Shown piece by piece: positions 1 to 20,995 of a stretch of 20,995 nt of DNA; positions within the stretch are counted from its first letter, which is position 1; the number at the start of each line of letters is the position of its first letter. Made by a program: the position numbers and the translations under genes. The stretch lies in IMG/VR virus record IMGVR_UViG_2778261417_000010. One strand, written 5' to 3'. Origin of the DNA: a virus (lineage: Duplodnaviria > Heunggongvirae > Uroviricota > Caudoviricetes). The notes under the pieces are model-generated. The model saw nothing but the letters and a program-made list of their open reading frames with translations, did no database searches and was not told where the DNA came from.

Positions 1-318
1 ATGAAAAAGATAGCTGCTATATCATTAATTAGTATTTTTATTATGTCTGGTTGTGCTGTGCATAATGATGAGACAAGTATCGGTAAATTTGGTCTTGCAT
101 ATAAAAGTAATATTCAGCGTAAACTCGATAACCAATACTACACCGAAGCCGAAGCTTCTTTAGCCAGGGGTAGAATATCTGGTGCAGAAAATATAGTAAA
201 AAATGATGCAACTCATTTCTGTGTTACTCAGGGCAAAAAAATGCAAATAGTTGAGCTGAAGACAGAAGGTGTAGGATTACATGGTGTCGCTCGTCTGACA
301 TTCAAATGTGGAGAGTGA
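1..318 (+). CDS. small putative lipoprotein (host flank, outside the prophage)
   Basis: Complete ATG..TGA ORF, 105 aa. N-terminus MKKIAAISLISIFIMSGC looks like a signal peptide ending in a lipobox-like MSGC. Sequence is visibly AT-rich. No family recognised. Confidence 0.55.
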   Translation: MKKIAAISLISIFIMSGCAVHNDETSIGKFGLAYKSNIQRKLDNQYYTEAEASLARGRISGAENIVKNDATHFCVTQGKKMQIVELKTEGVGLHGVARLTFKCGE

Positions 319-380
319 GAATATTTTTTGGTAAGCGTCAAATATGCGCGTTCTGGCTGTGCGTAGCCGGAACCTGTGGG

Positions 381-413
381 AGCACGATGCCGATAAGTGA
401 AAGGCATCGTGCT
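381..413. repeat. perfect 11-bp inverted repeat with 11-nt loop in host flank
   Basis: AGCACGATGCC (381-391) / GGCATCGTGCT (403-413), read directly. No T-run follows on either strand, so not a canonical intrinsic terminator. Confidence 0.5.
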
Positions 414-477
414 ATGAAGGAGGATTCTATCGATGTGGTCAATGGAAGACGGTTACCAGAGATAGGGCTTATGCATA

Positions 478-504
478 AAAAAATAAGCCCGTGTAAGGGA
501 GATT
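478..504. other. attL: putative P2-type attachment core (attL junction between host and prophage)
   Basis: AAAAAATAAGCCCGTGTAAGGGAGATT lies ~80 bp beyond the 3' end of int. It matches the 27-bp P2 att core as I recall it from memory, not verified. AT-rich host-like sequence lies to its left. Confidence 0.5.
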
Positions 505-583
505 TAGGGTGTCACCAGTAGGGGCTTTCAACGGTACAATGCGGGTTTGAGCGGCATAAATTACCACTGAAAGCCCTTAAACG

Positions 584-1597
584 TTACTCTACTGTGGACA
601 CTGTGTGGACACTCTCGACCTCAGTACCACCTCTTAGCGGATTAAGAGAAATGGCGTCCTGAAGGTACTCTGGCGCAAAATGAGCGTAAACCATAGTTTG
701 CTCAATCCGCGTGTGACCTAGTATCCGTTGTAGCGTGATAATACTTCCTCCATTAATCATGAAATGAGTGGCAAAGCTGTGCCTTAGTGCATGTGTAGCT
801 TGCCCCATTGGCAAATCCGGTTTTATTGCTTTCATTGTTCGTCTGAAGCGAGGGTAATCAGCATCAGGGAATAAAAAACCTCGTTTGTTATCCGCGATCA
901 TTTTGGCAACAGCCTCTGAGATCGGGACGGTGCGTGGTTTGTTTGTTTTCGTTTTAACAAACGTGACGCGGTTATGGATGATATTTTCTGCTTTCAAACG
1001 AGCTGCTTCTCCCCAACGTGCTCCAGTACTCAGGCAAAGAATCGCAATCTTTTTGTTGTCGCCGTCAAGAGCAGCAAGCAGTAAGGCAATTTCTTCCTGC
1101 GTGAGATAGCCTGTGTCTGGTTTTTCCTCCTTAAGCCTTTTTGTCCCTCTGATAGGGTGCTCACCAAAGAATAACTCCGCTTCAATCAGGGCTGTAAACA
1201 TGCCGCTAATACATGTTAAATCACGATTGATACTCGAAGGTTTAATACCCTGACTTCTTCGGGTGGCGCAGTACTGGCTGATAAGCGATTTCGTAATTTG
1301 AAATGCGCATGGGTCATTCGTTATTTTTGTGAAGATTTCAATTTTCCCAAGATTAGATTTCCCATGCTCTTCGTGTTTACCCTTTAAATCCCACCAGATC
1401 TGTGTCAGCTCCGACAGACGTCGCTTGTCTGTTGGTTTTGATAGCCATTCTTTATTGTGGTGGTTGTACAACGTGTATTTCTCGAAAGCGACAGCTTCGC
1501 TTTTCTTATCAAACTTCCTACGGATGCGTTTTCCATTACGTCCAGTAGGGCGGATGTCCACTTCATATCGACCATCATCGAGTTTTTTGATTGCCAT
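584..1597 (-). CDS. int: tyrosine integrase (P2 Int-like)
   Basis: 337-aa ORF, ATG start preceded by GGAGGG. Sequence MAIKKLDDGRYEVDIRPTG...HALRHSFATHFMINGGSIITLQRILGHTRIEQTMVYAH carries the tyrosine-recombinase R..H..R..Y C-terminal catalytic region. Length equals P2 Int as recalled. Confidence 0.95.
   Translation of the reverse strand: MAIKKLDDGRYEVDIRPTGRNGKRIRRKFDKKSEAVAFEKYTLYNHHNKEWLSKPTDKRRLSELTQIWWDLKGKHEEHGKSNLGKIEIFTKITNDPCAFQITKSLISQYCATRRSQGIKPSSINRDLTCISGMFTALIEAELFFGEHPIRGTKRLKEEKPDTGYLTQEEIALLLAALDGDNKKIAILCLSTGARWGEAARLKAENIIHNRVTFVKTKTNKPRTVPISEAVAKMIADNKRGFLFPDADYPRFRRTMKAIKPDLPMGQATHALRHSFATHFMINGGSIITLQRILGHTRIEQTMVYAHFAPEYLQDAISLNPLRGGTEVESVHTVSTVE
593..612. repeat. tandem direct repeat TGTGGACAC x2 at the int 3' end; candidate Int arm-type binding sites
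   Basis: TGTGGACAC at 593-601 and 604-612, read directly. Overlaps the last codons of int (..HTVSTVE). Assignment as arm sites is inference. Confidence 0.3.
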
Positions 1598-1712: not shown

Positions 1713-2012
1713 TTAACCAGTCTTTTGACCGGAGTGGGGCGACGTTGTTTCGTTTTGCCCAAAGTGTGCGAGAGCGGGCGCAATTTGCCCGGACTCAGGA
1801 GCGATCTGATTGGTCATGAACCATAAAGTGTATTTGGTGAATTGTGGGGTCTGCAGGATGTTCATCATGACATCTGTTGGAGGTGTTGAACGACCACTTT
1901 CATAGTAACTCAGCGTGCCATACGGAACCCCTGTTAAATCAGCAAGTTGTTGTCTGCTCAAATACTCTGATTTTCGCATTAAGACTATCTTCTCGCTTAT
2001 CGTGTTTGACAT
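1713..2012 (-). CDS. C: immunity repressor (P2 C-like)
   Basis: 99-aa ORF upstream of and co-oriented with int. N-terminal helix-turn-helix-like segment (SRQQLADLTGVPYGTLSYYESG). Length and position match P2 C. Confidence 0.9.
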   Translation of the reverse strand: MSNTISEKIVLMRKSEYLSRQQLADLTGVPYGTLSYYESGRSTPPTDVMMNILQTPQFTKYTLWFMTNQIAPESGQIAPALAHFGQNETTSPHSGQKTG

Positions 2013-4166: not shown

Positions 4167-6426
4167 AGCCTCCGGGCGTTTTGTCCCTCCATCAGCATTT
4201 GCCGCAGGCACCGGTAAGGCGTTTACCGGTGCTTATGCATGGAACGCGCCACGCGAGGCTGTCGGGCGCGAAAGACCCCTTACACGTGACGAGATGCGTC
4301 AGGTGCAAGGTGTTTTATCCACGATTAACCGCCTGCCTTACTTTTTGCGCTCGCTGTTTACTTCACGCTATGACTACATCCGGCGCAATAAAAGCCCGGT
4401 GCACGGGTTTTATTTCCTCACATCCACTTTTCAGCGTCGTTTATGGCCGCGCATTGAGCGCGTGAATCAGCGCCATGAAATGAACACCGACGCGTCGTTG
4501 CTGTTTCTGGCAGAGCGTGACCATTATGCGCGTCTGCCGGGGATGAATGACAAGGAACTGAAAAAGTTTGCCGCCCGTATCTCATCGCAGCTTTTCATGA
4601 TGTATGAGGAACTCTGCGATGCATGGGTTGATGCACATGGCGAGAAAGAATCGCTGTTTACGGATGAGGCTCAGGCGCATCTGTATGGTCATGTTGCTGG
4701 CGCTGCACGAGCTTTCAATATTTCCCCTCTCTACTGGAAAAAATACCGTAAAGGACAGATGACCACGAGGCAGGCATATTCTGCCATTGCCCGTCTGTTT
4801 AACGATGAGTGGTGGACTCATCAGCTTAAAGGTCAGCGTATGCGCTGGCATGAGGCGTTACTGATTGCTGTCGGGGAGGTGAATAAAGACCGTTCTCCTT
4901 ATGCCAGTAAACATGCCATTCGTGATGTGCGTGCGCGCCGCCAGGCAAATCTGGAATTTCTTAAATCGTGTGACCTTGAAAACAGGGAAACCGGCGAGCG
5001 CATCGACCTTATCAGTAAGGTGATGGGAAGTATTTCTAATCCTGAAATTCGCCGGATGGAGCTGATGAACACCATTGCCGGTATTGAGCGTTACGCCGCC
5101 GCAGAGGGTGATGTGGGGATGTTTATCACGCTGACCGCGCCGTCAAAGTATCACCCGACACGTCAGGTCGGAAAAGGTGAAAGTAAAACCGTCCAGCTAA
5201 ATCACGGCTGGAACGATGAGGCATTTAATCCAAAGGATGCGCAGCGTTATCTCTGCCGCATCTGGAGCCTGATGCGCACGGCATTCAAGGATAATGATTT
5301 ACAGGTCTACGGTTTGCGTGTCGTCGAGCCACACCACGACGGAACGCCGCACTGGCATATGATGCTTTTTTGTAATCCACGTCAGCGTAACCAGATTATC
5401 GAAACCATGCGTCGCTACGCGCTCAAAGAGGATGGCGACGAAAGAGGAGCCGAGCGAAACCGTTTTCAGGCGAAACACCTTAACCGGGGCGGTGCTGCGG
5501 GGTATATCGCGAAATACATTTCAAAAAATATCGACGGCTATGCACTGGATGGTCAGCTCGATAACGATACCGGCAGACCTCTGAAAGATACTGCCGCGGC
5601 TGTTACTGCATGGGCGTCAACGTGGCGCATCCCGCAATTTAAAACGGTTGGTCTGCCGACAATGGGGGCTTACCGTGAACTACGCAAATTGCCTCGCGGC
5701 GTCAGCATTGCTGATGAGTTTGACGAACGCGTCGAGGCTGCACGCGCTGCCGCAGACAGTGGCGATTTTGCGTTGTATATCAGTGCGCAGGGTGGGGCAA
5801 ATGTTCCGCGCGATTGCCAGACTGTCAGAGTCGCCCGTAGCCCGTCGGATGAAGTTAACGAGTACGAGGAAGAAGTCGAGAGAGTGGTCGGCATTTACGC
5901 GCCGCATCTCGGCGCGCGTCATATTCATATCACCAGAACGACGGACTGGCGCATTGTTCCGAAAGTTCCGGTCGTGGAGCCTTTAACTTTAAAAAGCGGC
6001 ATCGCCGCGCCTCGGAGTCCTGTCAATAACTGTGGAAAGCTCACCAGTGGTGATACTTCGTTACCGGCTCCCACACCTTCTGAGCACGTCGCAGCAGTGC
6101 TTAATCTGGTTGATGACGGTGTTATCGAATGGAATGACCCGGAGGTCGTGAGGGCGCTCAGGGGCGCATTAAAACACGGACTGAGAACACCAAATCGTCA
6201 GCAAAGAGCCGGAAGCCCGTTAAAACCGCATGAAATAGCACCGTCGGCCAGACTGACCCGGTCGGAACGATTGCAAATTACCCGTATCCGCGTTGACCTC
6301 GCTCAGAACGGTATCAGGCCGCAACGATGGGAGCTTGAGGTGCTGGCGCGTGGCGCGACCGTAAATTATGACGGGAAAAAATTCACGTATCCGGTCACTG
6401 ATGAGTGGCCGGGGTTTGTGGATTAA
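4156..6426 (+). CDS. A: replication initiation endonuclease A (rolling-circle nicking protein)
   Basis: ORF track start 4114 is TTG. ATG 4156 (MAVKASGRF...) follows GAGG and overlaps the upstream stop by 11 nt. Contains HUH-type motif HWHMMLF (~5351-5368) and active-site tyrosine pair in GYIAKYISK (~5503-5526). Confidence 0.9.
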   Translation: MAVKASGRFVPPSAFAAGTGKAFTGAYAWNAPREAVGRERPLTRDEMRQVQGVLSTINRLPYFLRSLFTSRYDYIRRNKSPVHGFYFLTSTFQRRLWPRIERVNQRHEMNTDASLLFLAERDHYARLPGMNDKELKKFAARISSQLFMMYEELCDAWVDAHGEKESLFTDEAQAHLYGHVAGAARAFNISPLYWKKYRKGQMTTRQAYSAIARLFNDEWWTHQLKGQRMRWHEALLIAVGEVNKDRSPYASKHAIRDVRARRQANLEFLKSCDLENRETGERIDLISKVMGSISNPEIRRMELMNTIAGIERYAAAEGDVGMFITLTAPSKYHPTRQVGKGESKTVQLNHGWNDEAFNPKDAQRYLCRIWSLMRTAFKDNDLQVYGLRVVEPHHDGTPHWHMMLFCNPRQRNQIIETMRRYALKEDGDERGAERNRFQAKHLNRGGAAGYIAKYISKNIDGYALDGQLDNDTGRPLKDTAAAVTAWASTWRIPQFKTVGLPTMGAYRELRKLPRGVSIADEFDERVEAARAAADSGDFALYISAQGGANVPRDCQTVRVARSPSDEVNEYEEEVERVVGIYAPHLGARHIHITRTTDWRIVPKVPVVEPLTLKSGIAAPRSPVNNCGKLTSGDTSLPAPTPSEHVAAVLNLVDDGVIEWNDPEVVRALRGALKHGLRTPNRQQRAGSPLKPHEIAPSARLTRSERLQITRIRVDLAQNGIRPQRWELEVLARGATVNYDGKKFTYPVTDEWPGFVD

Positions 6427-6471
6427 ACTTATTGATAAATAATGTGTCAAGATAACGCCAGGTAATTATAT

Positions 6472-6909
6472 ATGGTAAGAGTTTGCATTGATAAGAAAGG
6501 GAATGTTATCACCGATATCTCTTTGGGAGTCGGGGATTTTGAAGATTGTTGTAGCGTAGCAGAGGAGAAGTATAATCAGGCACTTTGCAGTAATTTTGTG
6601 AGTGTGGTGGCAGTGGTGAATGACGATAATGAGAAAATAGGTTTTTGTTCATTCATCATTGAATCTACAGAGGACGCTGTAATATATCAAATCGATTATG
6701 TTTGGGTTAAGCAAAGTGAGCGGGGACAAGGGTTATCAAAATTAATGATTCCTTATGTGGCTCAAGAGCTTATTTCTATTTATAAAGACTTGCTTGGAAA
6801 GTATTCATTTGGTGATATATGTCTTTGTGATAATTCTGTTTATATATCGGATGGAGGGGCTGTTTTTGGTCGAGGGGTAAAGGGATTCACCTTTAATGTA
6901 ATTAAGTAA
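6472..6909 (+). CDS. small GNAT-like N-acetyltransferase (cargo gene in the A-cos hotspot)
   Basis: 145-aa ORF in a conspicuously AT-rich island. Beta strand IYQIDYVWV followed by RGQGLSKLM fits the GNAT motif-A acetyl-CoA pyrophosphate loop (R/Q-x-x-G-x-G/A/S). No obvious SD before ATG 6472. Family call from motif only. Confidence 0.55.
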   Translation: MVRVCIDKKGNVITDISLGVGDFEDCCSVAEEKYNQALCSNFVSVVAVVNDDNEKIGFCSFIIESTEDAVIYQIDYVWVKQSERGQGLSKLMIPYVAQELISIYKDLLGKYSFGDICLCDNSVYISDGGAVFGRGVKGFTFNVIK

Positions 6910-6950
6910 TTCCGGGTGAAATGAAAAAGATATCTCAATGTTTGAGATGG

Positions 6951-7004
6951 AACAAATTTAAGAAACTCCGCCGGTGCTGAAACTTGCTTTCAGTGCTGGC
7001 GGAG
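6951..7004 (-). terminator. candidate intrinsic terminator for the 143-aa cargo gene; hairpin also foldable on the plus transcript
   Basis: Hairpin 6966-7004 (CTCCGCCGGTGCTGAAA / loop CTTGC / TTTCAGTGCTGGCGGAG) starts 14 nt past the minus-gene stop. On the minus strand it is followed by a U-rich run (complement of 6951-6965). On plus RNA the stem is 17 bp with three G-U pairs but no U-tract. Confidence 0.4.
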
Positions 7005-7017
7005 GTGAAGTAAGGCG

Positions 7018-7449
7018 TTAGCTAGTTATCAGATTGACACCGAGGGTAAGCAGGTTTGTTACTGCACCGGCAATAACACCAGGTGTCCCGTCCTTCACTG
7101 CGCTGATAATCTTATCTCCCATCGTTTCATTACCGCCAAGTGCTTCGGGTTTTTTGTTGAGCACCGCGAGTGCTTTCTCGGTCAGTCGCACATCATGAAA
7201 ACCGGTCTGATGGTCTGTTCCGTACAGAATATAGCCGTTTTCGCTTAAGAAAGTGAATGTGCCATCAACCACACTACGCAACTGATTCAGTGCTTTCATT
7301 TCTGGTGAGTTAAGTTGGTCAAAGTAGTCATCAGGTAACGCGGCGTTAAATTTTTTGTAGGTGATGACTTGTGGTACAGGAAAGTTATCCCATAGCACCG
7401 CAAAGATTTCTGCCGTCTGTTGGTTGAATAATTCGAGATTTTTGGACAT
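7018..7449 (-). CDS. hypothetical protein, 143 aa, hydrophobic glycine-rich C-terminus (cargo gene in the A-cos hotspot)
   Basis: ATG (plus CAT 7447-7449) with AAGGGA about 9 nt upstream on the minus strand. AT-rich. C-terminal GTPGVIAGAVTNLLTLGVNLI is glycine-zipper-like. No family recognised. Confidence 0.65.
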   Translation of the reverse strand: MSKNLELFNQQTAEIFAVLWDNFPVPQVITYKKFNAALPDDYFDQLNSPEMKALNQLRSVVDGTFTFLSENGYILYGTDHQTGFHDVRLTEKALAVLNKKPEALGGNETMGDKIISAVKDGTPGVIAGAVTNLLTLGVNLITS

Positions 7450-7510
7450 GCATAGTTCCCTTTCATCAATTAAAGACCCTTATGCCGACTGGGCAAAGAG
7501 GCTAACTGTA

Positions 7511-7642
7511 ATGGCCTCAAATAACGACCTGAGCTCACGCGAGGTGGACAGTTACACTGAAAAAATGGTTGAACAAGCCAGTAAAGATGAGCTTATGGTC
7601 GTTATAAAATACCTGTTAAATCACATCAGAATGAGTAAATAA
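7511..7642 (+). CDS. possible small ORF (43 aa) divergent from the 143-aa gene
   Basis: ATG 7511 with AAGAGG (7496-7501) 9 nt upstream; MASNNDLSSREVDSYTEKMVEQASKDELMVVIKYLLNHIRMSK. Could instead be the untranslated promoter region of the minus-strand gene. Confidence 0.3.
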   Translation: MASNNDLSSREVDSYTEKMVEQASKDELMVVIKYLLNHIRMSK

Positions 7643-7782
7643 AATGATCTATATCAAGATGTTATCTCACATTTATGAAAGTCCGTGGACAACGATTTTT
7701 CTGCTAATTGTTGTCAGTACGTGCCTCAACAGTGTGATTGGTGCATTGCGCGGCCAGTGACAACTATAAAAATTGATCAGAA

Positions 7783-7808
7783 CCGGCACCATGAATGCCG
7801 GTTTTTTT
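7783..7808 (+). terminator. rho-independent terminator upstream of cos
   Basis: CCGGCA (7783-7788) / loop CCATGAA / TGCCGG (7796-7801) followed by TTTTTTT (7802-7808). Confidence 0.6.
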
Positions 7809-7953
7809 GTGCTTTTTCTGTGATATCCCCGTTTTTATCTGTGCATGGTTTTGCATGTGCCGGAGTTACATGTTCTGGCTGTGCGTCCGCCAGGACTGGC
7901 GTGGCTCAAAAGCGGTATTGCAACTGCATTAAAACCGCCCCATGAAGCGGGCG

Positions 7954-17323: not shown

Positions 17324-17355
17324 TTGTGCCATTCCCGACACCTCATCGTCACATT

Positions 17356-17377
17356 GCCGCCGGTATGACCCGGCGGC
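17356..17377 (+). other. GC-rich hairpin in the S-V intergenic region (late-operon boundary)
   Basis: GCCGCCGG (17356-17363) / loop TATGAC / CCGGCGGC (17370-17377), followed by ATCCTTCCCGTT, not a clean U-tract. In P2, V begins a separate late operon. Confidence 0.35.
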
Positions 17378-17389
17378 ATCCTTCCCGTT

Positions 17390-19282: not shown

Positions 19283-19886
19283 TTCGCGACTGCTGCCGAC
19301 TGGCTCATCACCGCTTGAAGTTGCCGCCGCAAAAGCCTGTGCGGAAATTGAAAAAACGCCGGTCAGTATTCGTGAGCTGTGGAACCCGGATACCTGCCCG
19401 GCAAATCTGCTGCCGTGGCTGGCGTGGTCATTTTCGGTTGACCGCTGGGATGATAATTGGCCGGAAGCGACAAAACGCGCTGTTATCCGCGATGCGTATT
19501 TCATTCACTGCCATAAGGGCACTATAGGCGCAATCCGGCGTGTGGTGGAGCCGCTCGGCTATCTGATTGAGGTGAGGGAGTGGTGGCAACTCAATGAGGA
19601 GCCGGGGACGTTCCGCATCGTTGTTGGCGTGCTTGAGCAGGGTATTACCGAGGAAATGTATCAGGAGCTGGAGCGCCTCGTTGCTGATGCAAAACCGGCG
19701 AGCCGCCATCTGACGGGACTGGCTATCAGTTTAAGTACAACCGGCAACATTTTTGCCGGTGCGGGATGCTATCACGGTGACGCCCTGACGGTTTATCCCT
19801 ACACCCCGGAGGCCATTATTGTCGGAGGGGATTATTTCCCGGCCTCGGCCATTCATTTAATTGATAACCTGAGAGTAAACGCATGA
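19275..19886 (+). CDS. I: baseplate protein I
   Basis: 203-aa ORF, GGAGG 5 nt upstream, overlaps the J stop. Longer than the ~176 aa I recall for P2 gpI, so the start or length may differ. Confidence 0.8.
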   Translation: MSDSRLLPTGSSPLEVAAAKACAEIEKTPVSIRELWNPDTCPANLLPWLAWSFSVDRWDDNWPEATKRAVIRDAYFIHCHKGTIGAIRRVVEPLGYLIEVREWWQLNEEPGTFRIVVGVLEQGITEEMYQELERLVADAKPASRHLTGLAISLSTTGNIFAGAGCYHGDALTVYPYTPEAIIVGGDYFPASAIHLIDNLRVNA

Positions 19887-20995
19887 CAGTGAAATACTAC
19901 GCCATTCTGACTAATCAGGGCGCAGCACGGCTGGCTAACGCGACGATGCTCGGCAGTAAGCTGAATCTGACGCAAATGGCCGTTGGTGATGCGAATGGTG
20001 TCTTGCCGACCCCAGACCCGGCACAGACAAAACTGATTAACCAGAAACGCATCGCGCCGCTGAATCTTCTGAGTGTTGACCCGAACAACCAGAGCCAGAT
20101 TATTGCGGAGCAAATCATCCCTGAGAACGAGGGCGGATTCTGGATCCGTGAGATTGGGCTTTATGATGATGAAGGCGTACTCATTGCGGTGGCGAACTGC
20201 CCGGAAACGTACAAACCGCAGTTGCAGGAAGGCAGTGGTCGTACCCAGACTATCCGCATGATTCTGGTTGTCACGAATACCGAAGCCATCACGCTGAAAA
20301 TCGACCCGTCGGTGGTACTGGCGACCCGTAAATACGTGGATGATGAAGTCCTGGAATTAAAGCTGTATGTGGATGACCAGATGAGAAACCACATTGCCGC
20401 ACAGGATCCTCATACCCAGTATGCGCAGAAACATAATCCGACATTTACCGGAGAACCAAAAGCGCCGACGCCTGCCGCAGGAAATAACACCACGCGGATT
20501 GCGACCACTGCGTTTGTTCAGGCCGCTATTACCGCTCTGATTAACGGTGCGCCAGCCACACTGGACACACTGAAAGAAATTGCCGCGGCCATTAACAATG
20601 ACCCGAAATTCAGCACCACCATTAACAATGCGCTGTCAGGTAAGCAGCCACTGGATGAGACGCTGACTAATTTGAGTGGAAAGGATGTAGCTGGTCTTCT
20701 CACATACCTTGGTTTGGGAGAAGGTTCGGCATTACCTGTTGGTGTACCTGTTCCATGGCCTTCAGCCACTCCGCCGACAGGCTGGCTGAAATGCAACGGT
20801 GCAGCTTTTTCTGCTGAAGAATACCCGGAACTGGCAAAGGCTTATCCGACAAATAAATTGCCTGATTTACGTGGTGAGTTTATGCGTGGCTGGGATGATG
20901 GAAGAGGCGTTGATAGTGACAGGGGGATTCTCACTGCGCAATCTCATGGTATGCCGTCTATTTCAGGAACGTTTAATGGTCTTTTTGCTGTTAAA
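19883..20995 (+). CDS. H: tail fibre protein H (5' part; truncated by window end)
   Basis: ATG 19883 overlaps the I stop (ATGA). Frame is open to the window end (371 codons, no stop; checked by reading). Contains the conserved tail-fibre motif GWLKCNGAAFSAEEYPELAKAYP. Confidence 0.85.
   Translation, partial: MTVKYYAILTNQGAARLANATMLGSKLNLTQMAVGDANGVLPTPDPAQTKLINQKRIAPLNLLSVDPNNQSQIIAEQIIPENEGGFWIREIGLYDDEGVLIAVANCPETYKPQLQEGSGRTQTIRMILVVTNTEAITLKIDPSVVLATRKYVDDEVLELKLYVDDQMRNHIAAQDPHTQYAQKHNPTFTGEPKAPTPAAGNNTTRIATTAFVQAAITALINGAPATLDTLKEIAAAINNDPKFSTTINNALSGKQPLDETLTNLSGKDVAGLLTYLGLGEGSALPVGVPVPWPSATPPTGWLKCNGAAFSAEEYPELAKAYPTNKLPDLRGEFMRGWDDGRGVDSDRGILTAQSHGMPSISGTFNGLFAVK

Follow-up and report, generated by a model that had tools for sequence, protein, structure and literature searches.

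Evidence for a P2-type attL at locI, between yegR and the sRNA gene cyaR

Introduction

Where does a P2-like prophage begin in the chromosome of its host, and what do the sequences on either side of that boundary do? This question is raised by a stretch of 20,995 nucleotides recorded as a tailed virus (IMG/VR record IMGVR_UViG_2778261417_000010), which we refer to as the window. It opens with the host gene yegR (1-318, plus strand), an open reading frame for a 105-aa lipoprotein that is annotated as yegR in thousands of E. coli genomes and is the chromosomal neighbour of the junction, and it soon runs into int, encoding the P2 tyrosine integrase (584-1597, minus strand). A preliminary description of this DNA, made from its letters, placed a host-prophage junction between the two genes, with a 27-bp att core matched to that of P2 and a tandem repeat in the last int codons that was proposed as a pair of integrase arm-type sites; it also held that the flank is not the 3' end of a tRNA or tmRNA gene.

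Recombination systems of the lambda type use a heterobivalent integrase, arm-type and core-type sites, and a directionality factor. The attL junction of P2 is itself already known, and integration at locI is published, textbook P2 biology. Here, we fix the boundary in the window, examine the sites around it and the gene into which the phage integrates, and describe a remnant in the host flank that bears on the history of the locus.

Results

The boundary falls on a 27-bp core identical to that of P2

The 27-mer AAAAAATAAGCCCGTGTAAGGGAGATT is found at 478-504 on the plus strand. With up to 3 mismatches permitted it still has no second match in the window, and 100 shuffles gave 0 matches. It is identical at 27/27 positions to the attP core of P2 (AF063097, misc_feature 24356-24382), which is the crossover region with core-type Int binding; thus the P2 attP does contain the 27-mer, as the preliminary description had stated. 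When 320-2100 was compared with phage records by megablast, P2 (AF063097/NC_001895) matched at 99.4% and several Peduovirus genomes at 99.8%, and all of the alignments start at query base 159, which is position 478 of the window. From there to 6416 the window is colinear with P2 24356-30294, with a coordinate offset of 23,878, and it is free of mismatches up to 617; the first differing base is 618 (A, with G in P2).

The host side was approached by searching window 1-620 against 5,426 complete E. coli genomes and viewing the hits as a spread sample. yegR is present in nearly all of these genomes. Most of those in the sample match 1-504 and then end, while a minority run on into a 'site-specific integrase'. 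Phage homology therefore starts at 478 and host homology reaches 504, as a host-prophage junction at this point predicts. The preliminary description had put the core about 80 bp from the end of int; the measured distance to the int stop codon (584-586) is 79 nt, with int reading towards the core. Between yegR and the core lies a spacer of 159 bp (319-477), the host 'B' arm of attL.

A second copy of the core was sought at the far end of the prophage and was found at its ogr end in 027_SK3 (NZ_CP067311.1), a strain that is 100% identical to the window over 1-620. There, the two copies stand at 4,627,849 and 26,664 of a 4,631,526-bp record; the second, between ogrK and yegQ (locus L004, 26664-26690), is about 30.3 kb onward along the circular chromosome. 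This strain holds a complete prophage and an intact attR. Strain 13C1065T provided the unoccupied site, with one core, between yegR and yegQ (locus L002, 2978-3004).

We compared the 100-nt flanks of the core in all four configurations. The left flank of attL in the window matches the left flank of the empty site at 100/100 positions, and its right flank matches the right flank of P2 attP at 100/100. Reciprocally, the left flank of attR in 027_SK3 matches that of attP at 94/100, and its right flank matches that of the empty site at 100/100. The cross comparisons gave background only (18-24/100). This pattern fits the Campbell model, and 478-618 is almost certainly the attL (B-O-P') of a P2-type prophage at the classical locI, between yegR and cyaR.

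The genes beside this junction are of P2 type, and they are intact. int encodes a protein of 337 aa (Pfam Int_N, 1.3e-24; Phage_integrase, 8.7e-22) that differs from P2 Int by only two substitutions, E161D and A327V, the second of which results from the A for G change at 618. Upstream of int lies the gene for the immunity repressor C (1713-2012, minus strand; HTH_3), which matches P2 C at 25591-25890, and the P2 record annotates a Pc promoter upstream of C. The cox gene follows at 2127-2402 on the plus strand, assigned by P2 annotation and Pfam Phage_Cox (5.5e-48).

A tandem motif in the last codons of int matches the arm-type sites of P2

Two exact copies of TGTGGACAC occupy 593-601 and 604-612, precisely where the preliminary description had located a tandem repeat. 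Their period is 11 bp, and the fuller unit, TGTGGACACT, is likewise present twice. Both copies fall within the final codons of int (...E S V H T V S T V E *), and together they overlap nine sense codons at its end (V-H-T-V-S-T-V-E and a single base of the preceding Ser codon). Such a repeat might simply reflect the coding sequence of the integrase C-terminus, or chance, and have no role in DNA binding. Its position within int codons is compatible with this, some 9-mer is repeated at an offset of 9-15 bp in 43% of windows simulated with a first-order Markov model, and single copies of TGTGGACAC with 1 mismatch are not enriched in the window. As a bare repeat the pair is thus weak evidence. As a specific arm-type motif it is strong, and several observations run against a coding or chance origin.

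First, with an offset of 11 bp the copies are read in different frames, and therefore they do not form a peptide repeat. Second, when we searched for two copies of TGTGGACA at 11-bp spacing, with at most 1 mismatch each, 0.02 pairs were expected per window by chance and one was found, at 593. The whole 33.6-kb genome of P2 has only two such pairs, in the same orientation, one in the non-coding P arm (24297) and one in the P' arm (24471). Third, the P2 record annotates a protein_bind feature, 'Int, P' arm' (24470-24496), which corresponds to 592-618 on the plus strand of the window and spans both repeats, one helical turn apart and inside the int CDS; the window differs from P2 in a single base of this site, at its last position. 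Fourth, the published arm-site consensus for P2-type phages, tgTGGaCa, arranged as two direct repeats on each side of the core (PMC3448106), is matched by both copies. Fifth, a diverged relative, the Klebsiella phage ST16-OXA48phi5.4 (a peduovirus with an int region 74% identical), has TGTGGACAT twice with the same 11-bp period in the equivalent place, just downstream of the int stop codon (locus L007, 1258-1277, with the int CDS from 1279). Because this relative keeps the repeats outside int, the arm repeat is conserved as DNA and not as coding sequence. A mere coding or chance repeat is, in our judgement, scarcely credible, and the tandem motif that had been put forward as a candidate Int arm-type pair very probably is one.

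The same P2 record places the other Int sites in the P arm (24293-24320) and at the 'attP core' (24356-24383, window 478-505), and an IHF site at 24324-24357. The putative binding sites for Int and Cox in the window follow from this GenBank annotation and from secondary papers. In ST16-OXA48phi5.4 (L007 1170-1280) the core itself differs, and a gene with a diguanylate-cyclase domain lies directly beyond.

Opposed cox-box-like elements lie between the core and the P' arm

The region from 521 to 594 is 100% identical to the P2 protein_bind feature 'Cox' (24399-24472), and is by this annotation the binding region for Cox, the excision directionality factor. It lies between the core and the P' arm, and it contains cox-box-like elements in both orientations. 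The opposed elements form a 15-bp inverted repeat, at about 521-535 and 562-576, which is visible on folding. We considered whether this inverted repeat (521-576) could be an RNA hairpin or terminator and rejected the idea: its fold z is only -1.8, there is no U-run after it, and opposed cox-boxes fit better. The inverted cox-box hairpin is kept in ST16-OXA48phi5.4 (GGCTTTCAACGGT...ACCGTTGAAAGCC).

In the account of Berntsson et al. 2014 (PMC3936717), attP has six cox-boxes that point in two directions with 10-11 bp spacing; the authors propose that Cox filaments extending towards the Int core and arm sites block integration and shape the excisome at attL. Since they place Cox at attL, their paper confirms that the int-proximal junction is attL in the nomenclature of P2.

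Based upon established P2 and lambda-type recombinase biology, we propose how these elements would work, with protein binding, bending and strand exchange all taken from the literature. P2 Int would act as a heterobivalent recombinase, its N-terminal domain binding the arm repeats (P'1/P'2, 593-612) and its core-binding and catalytic domains binding and cutting within the 27-bp core (478-504). For integration, attP (P arm - core - P' arm), with its P arm presumably bent by IHF, would recombine with attB, the 3' end of cyaR, and strand exchange within the 27-bp identity would yield attL, as seen in the window, and attR. The core would be duplicated in the process, leaving one copy beside int and another at the ogr end, where it would complete cyaR. 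For excision, Cox would polymerise on the cox-boxes between core and P' arm (521-594) and bend attL, such that Int bound at the arm could also contact the core and form a synapse with attR, the junction that holds the P arm and IHF site.

The core is the 3' end of the sRNA gene cyaR

The preliminary description had stated that the flank is not a tRNA or tmRNA 3' end. This is correct as far as it goes, as ARAGORN detected neither tRNA nor tmRNA genes in the window and the core overlaps none. Yet the statement is incomplete, for the core is the 3' end of another structured RNA gene, that of the sRNA CyaR. The Rfam model RF00112 (CyaR_RyeE) scores 100.7 bits, against a gathering score of 47, at both the empty site and attR (L002 2981-3066 and L004 26667-26752, both on the minus strand), with the 3' end of the model inside the core. 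Read on the minus strand, the core is the last 27 nt of cyaR, and within the intrinsic terminator of CyaR it takes in two bases at the end of the 5' stem arm, then the loop, the 3' stem arm and the U-tail. Folding of the empty site shows the full CyaR terminator hairpin. P2 therefore uses the logic of integration at tRNA 3' ends: it targets the 3' end of a structured-RNA gene and carries a replacement copy, and because of this copy the gene is rebuilt after integration. Archer et al. 2011 (PMC3032704) name 'cyaR RNA' as the P2-type insertion site in E. coli W, K-12 (ogr-D') and B, and ryeE was previously known as a phage target according to Bobay et al. 2013 (PMC3603311).

Within the window, the core is an orphan copy whose cyaR body sits at the other junction, so that Rfam is silent here and the terminator hairpin cannot form. 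An Rfam scan of 1-2200 (E<=10) gave no CyaR, its sole match being a chance Flavo-1 inside int, and a scan of 250-750 for terminators and promoters gave no terminator and only two weak promoter-like matches. These results also bear on a different idea of what the core does here, namely that its chief role is at the RNA level, where this orphaned half of the CyaR terminator would end or stabilise the minus-strand int transcript. The idea has some appeal, as the core supplies the 3' arm and U-tail of that terminator, and int is transcribed towards it on the minus strand. Against it, the hairpin is absent when the cyaR body is missing, with the fold giving only a 3-bp stem, and neither a terminator nor CyaR was recovered in the scanned parts of the window. 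We regard such a role as highly improbable and continue to read the core as a recombination site.

Two further observations concern the cyaR end. The empty site has 7 A (7 U in the tail of CyaR), while the lysogen attR has 6 (L002 2968-2995 versus L004 26655-26680; window 477-483); the terminal U-run shortens from 7 to 6 at attR, since the base before the core in P2 is a T. According to Morita et al. 2022 (PMC9765468), efficient Hfq binding requires at least 7 U.

The exact 27-mer is also found more widely, at 21 loci in Escherichia, Shigella, Kluyvera and Enterobacter when one genome per species is considered. In Kluyvera spp. and Enterobacter hormaechei it ends cyaR as well, and the sequence across from cyaR is neither the spacer seen in E. 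coli nor a P2 P arm. At least 3 flank types recur among these loci (L009, L011-L013, L016-L021, L023, L027), one of which ends like an HTH/antitoxin-type gene. As flanks unlike that of P2 occur in many Kluyvera and Enterobacter genomes, other integrative elements probably use the 3' end of cyaR.

The host flank carries what looks like a fossil P arm

The spacer between yegR and the core has structure of its own. It contains two perfect hairpins (350-373 and 381-413), and its fold z is -4.7 whichever strand is folded. Part of the core recurs as an 8-nt inverted copy (GGGCTTAT / ATAAGCCC; 465-472 / 483-490), the pair bracketing the A-run. Some E. coli genomes have an insertion of about 170 bp in this spacer, apparent as two-piece hits spanning about 672 bp and as a longer yegR-int distance in locus L005.

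Beyond these features, local alignment pairs TTCTATCGATGTGGTCAATGGAAGACGGTTACCAGAGATA, at 425-464 on the plus strand of the host flank, with P2 24288-24328, the stretch that holds the P-arm Int site. The alignment scores 44, compared with means of 15-20 and maxima of 28-32 for shuffled sequences (z of 8-11). Of the two arm-type repeats, the first, TGTGGTCAA (434-442), survives intact and the second is degraded. The empty-site flank of Escherichia sp. MOD1-EC7003 aligns colinearly with the P arm as far as the core, the region of the IHF site included (score 53, z = 12); in that stretch, the empty sites of E. coli and Shigella are shorter by a deletion of about 16 nt. Corresponding segments are L029, about 600-660, and L030, 2025-2064. 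On these alignments, homology of 425-464 to a P2-type P arm seems to us well supported.

A record that matched the 'host' spacer, ON470606.1, hinted at a living phage with this sequence as its P arm. We rejected it as such, since it is an excerpted prophage whose record extends over gatR, yegS and yegR.

Because a remnant of a P arm stands in the host flank, the simplest reading of the sequence is that the 'empty' attB at locI is a fossil attR, dating from an older P2-like prophage. In K-12-type strains, the host spacer runs into a core truncated after its first 18 nt; a gene D fragment and ogrK come next, followed by an intact P arm, a complete core and cyaR. This D'-ogrK remnant resembles an intermediate in the same course of decay. 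The fossil P arm may be unreported: the fossil-attR reading is not mentioned in the secondary literature searched. The primary footprinting papers on the P2 att sites are Yu et al. 1989 and Yu and Haggard-Ljungquist 1993. A more speculative extension, which we hold to be a long shot, is that locI is a fossil attR whose retained TGTGGTCAA site still binds the N-terminal domain of Int.

The prophage beyond the junction is colinear with P2 apart from cargo

Could the attL in the window be a relic, with genuine sites and a defective prophage, as in K-12, that no longer recombines? The far end of this prophage lies beyond the window, the K-12-type strains described above hold a decayed P2 at the same locus (18 nt of core, then D'-ogrK), and P2-type prophages are known for poor excision. 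On the other hand, core, Cox region and P' arm are those of P2 but for one base, and both substitutions in Int are conservative. Moreover, the 20.5 kb past the core are colinear with the early and late genes of P2, with full-length open reading frames and only cargo swaps, and 027_SK3, whose junction is identical, has the complete prophage and intact attR noted above. A relic is thus unlikely, and we favour an intact attL beside a colinear P2-type prophage. In its cargo the window's prophage departs from that of 027_SK3, and the best coverage of the window by any complete E. coli genome in the collection was 95-96%.

Over its colinear parts, the prophage is about 97.5% identical to P2. A non-P2 insert at 6417-7924 replaces orf91, tin and old, a region that is the known variable 'hotspot' next to gene A. 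The insert holds an open reading frame for a GNAT-family acetyltransferase (6472-6909, plus strand; Pfam Acetyltransf_1, 22 bits) and unannotated frames of 143 aa (7018-7449, minus strand) and 93 aa, and PADLOC gave no convincing match within it. The same module is 100% identical in NZ_CP031833.1, where it belongs to a P2-like prophage with a different integrase at pflB/pflA; this was the one genome inspected among those sharing the module at 100%. P2 orf30 (786 bp), which is nonessential, is absent, with about 64 bp between the S and V homology blocks (17326-17389). From 19712 to the end of the window (19712-20995), homology to the P2 tail-fibre gene H fails, with one 68%-identical patch remaining.

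Discussion

The closest known counterpart of this junction is that of P2 itself (AF063097; locI of E. coli C). Core and Cox region are identical in the two, the P' arm is identical except for base 618, and the position relative to int, the host site (yegR / 3' end of cyaR) and the flanking int-C-cox module are the same. The differences lie in the two Int substitutions and, further away, in the replacement of tin, old and orf91, the absence of orf30 and the diverged tail fibre.

The cryptic P2 remnant of K-12 (ogrK-D', 'yegZ') shares the host flank and the right P arm-core-cyaR junction (PMC3032704). Whereas the remnant lacks int, P', the Cox sites and the last 9 nt of its left core, the window has an intact attL and a colinear prophage.

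At the level of architecture, the junction resembles lambda attP/attL (Int, IHF, Xis), in that a heterobivalent tyrosine integrase would act on arm-type and core-type sites (PMC3448106, PMC3936717) and a directionality factor would be bound between the core and an arm. There is no sequence similarity to lambda, however, and the 27-bp identity region is larger. Unlike in lambda, the directionality factor, Cox, is also a repressor of the lysis-lysogeny switch, the P' arm sites lie inside int, and integration is into an sRNA gene at its 3' end.

This choice of target brings P2 close to phages that integrate into the 3' ends of tRNA or tmRNA genes, such as 186, HP1, Fels-2 and P4 (PMC3448106). In each case the phage carries the 3' end of a structured RNA, including its terminator, and the RNA gene is rebuilt at one junction. 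What sets P2 apart from them is that its target is the Hfq-dependent sRNA CyaR and that the duplicated segment is only 27 nt long.

The significance of this junction is mainly one of annotation. The left boundary of this prophage is fixed to the base (478-504), and the element is a P2 (Peduovirus) lysogen at locI. The view of an anonymous intergenic site for P2 is corrected, since P2 targets the CyaR sRNA terminator. The 3' end of int would be at once coding sequence and binding site for Int, a point to respect when int is recoded or deleted. If the arm-type site retained in the host flank does still bind Int, it could contribute to the strong preference of P2 for locI, and it could change the architecture of the excision complex at attL, by providing arm-type sites on both sides of the core. 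The fossil P arm itself would be modest evidence that previous rounds of prophage decay can shape attachment sites.
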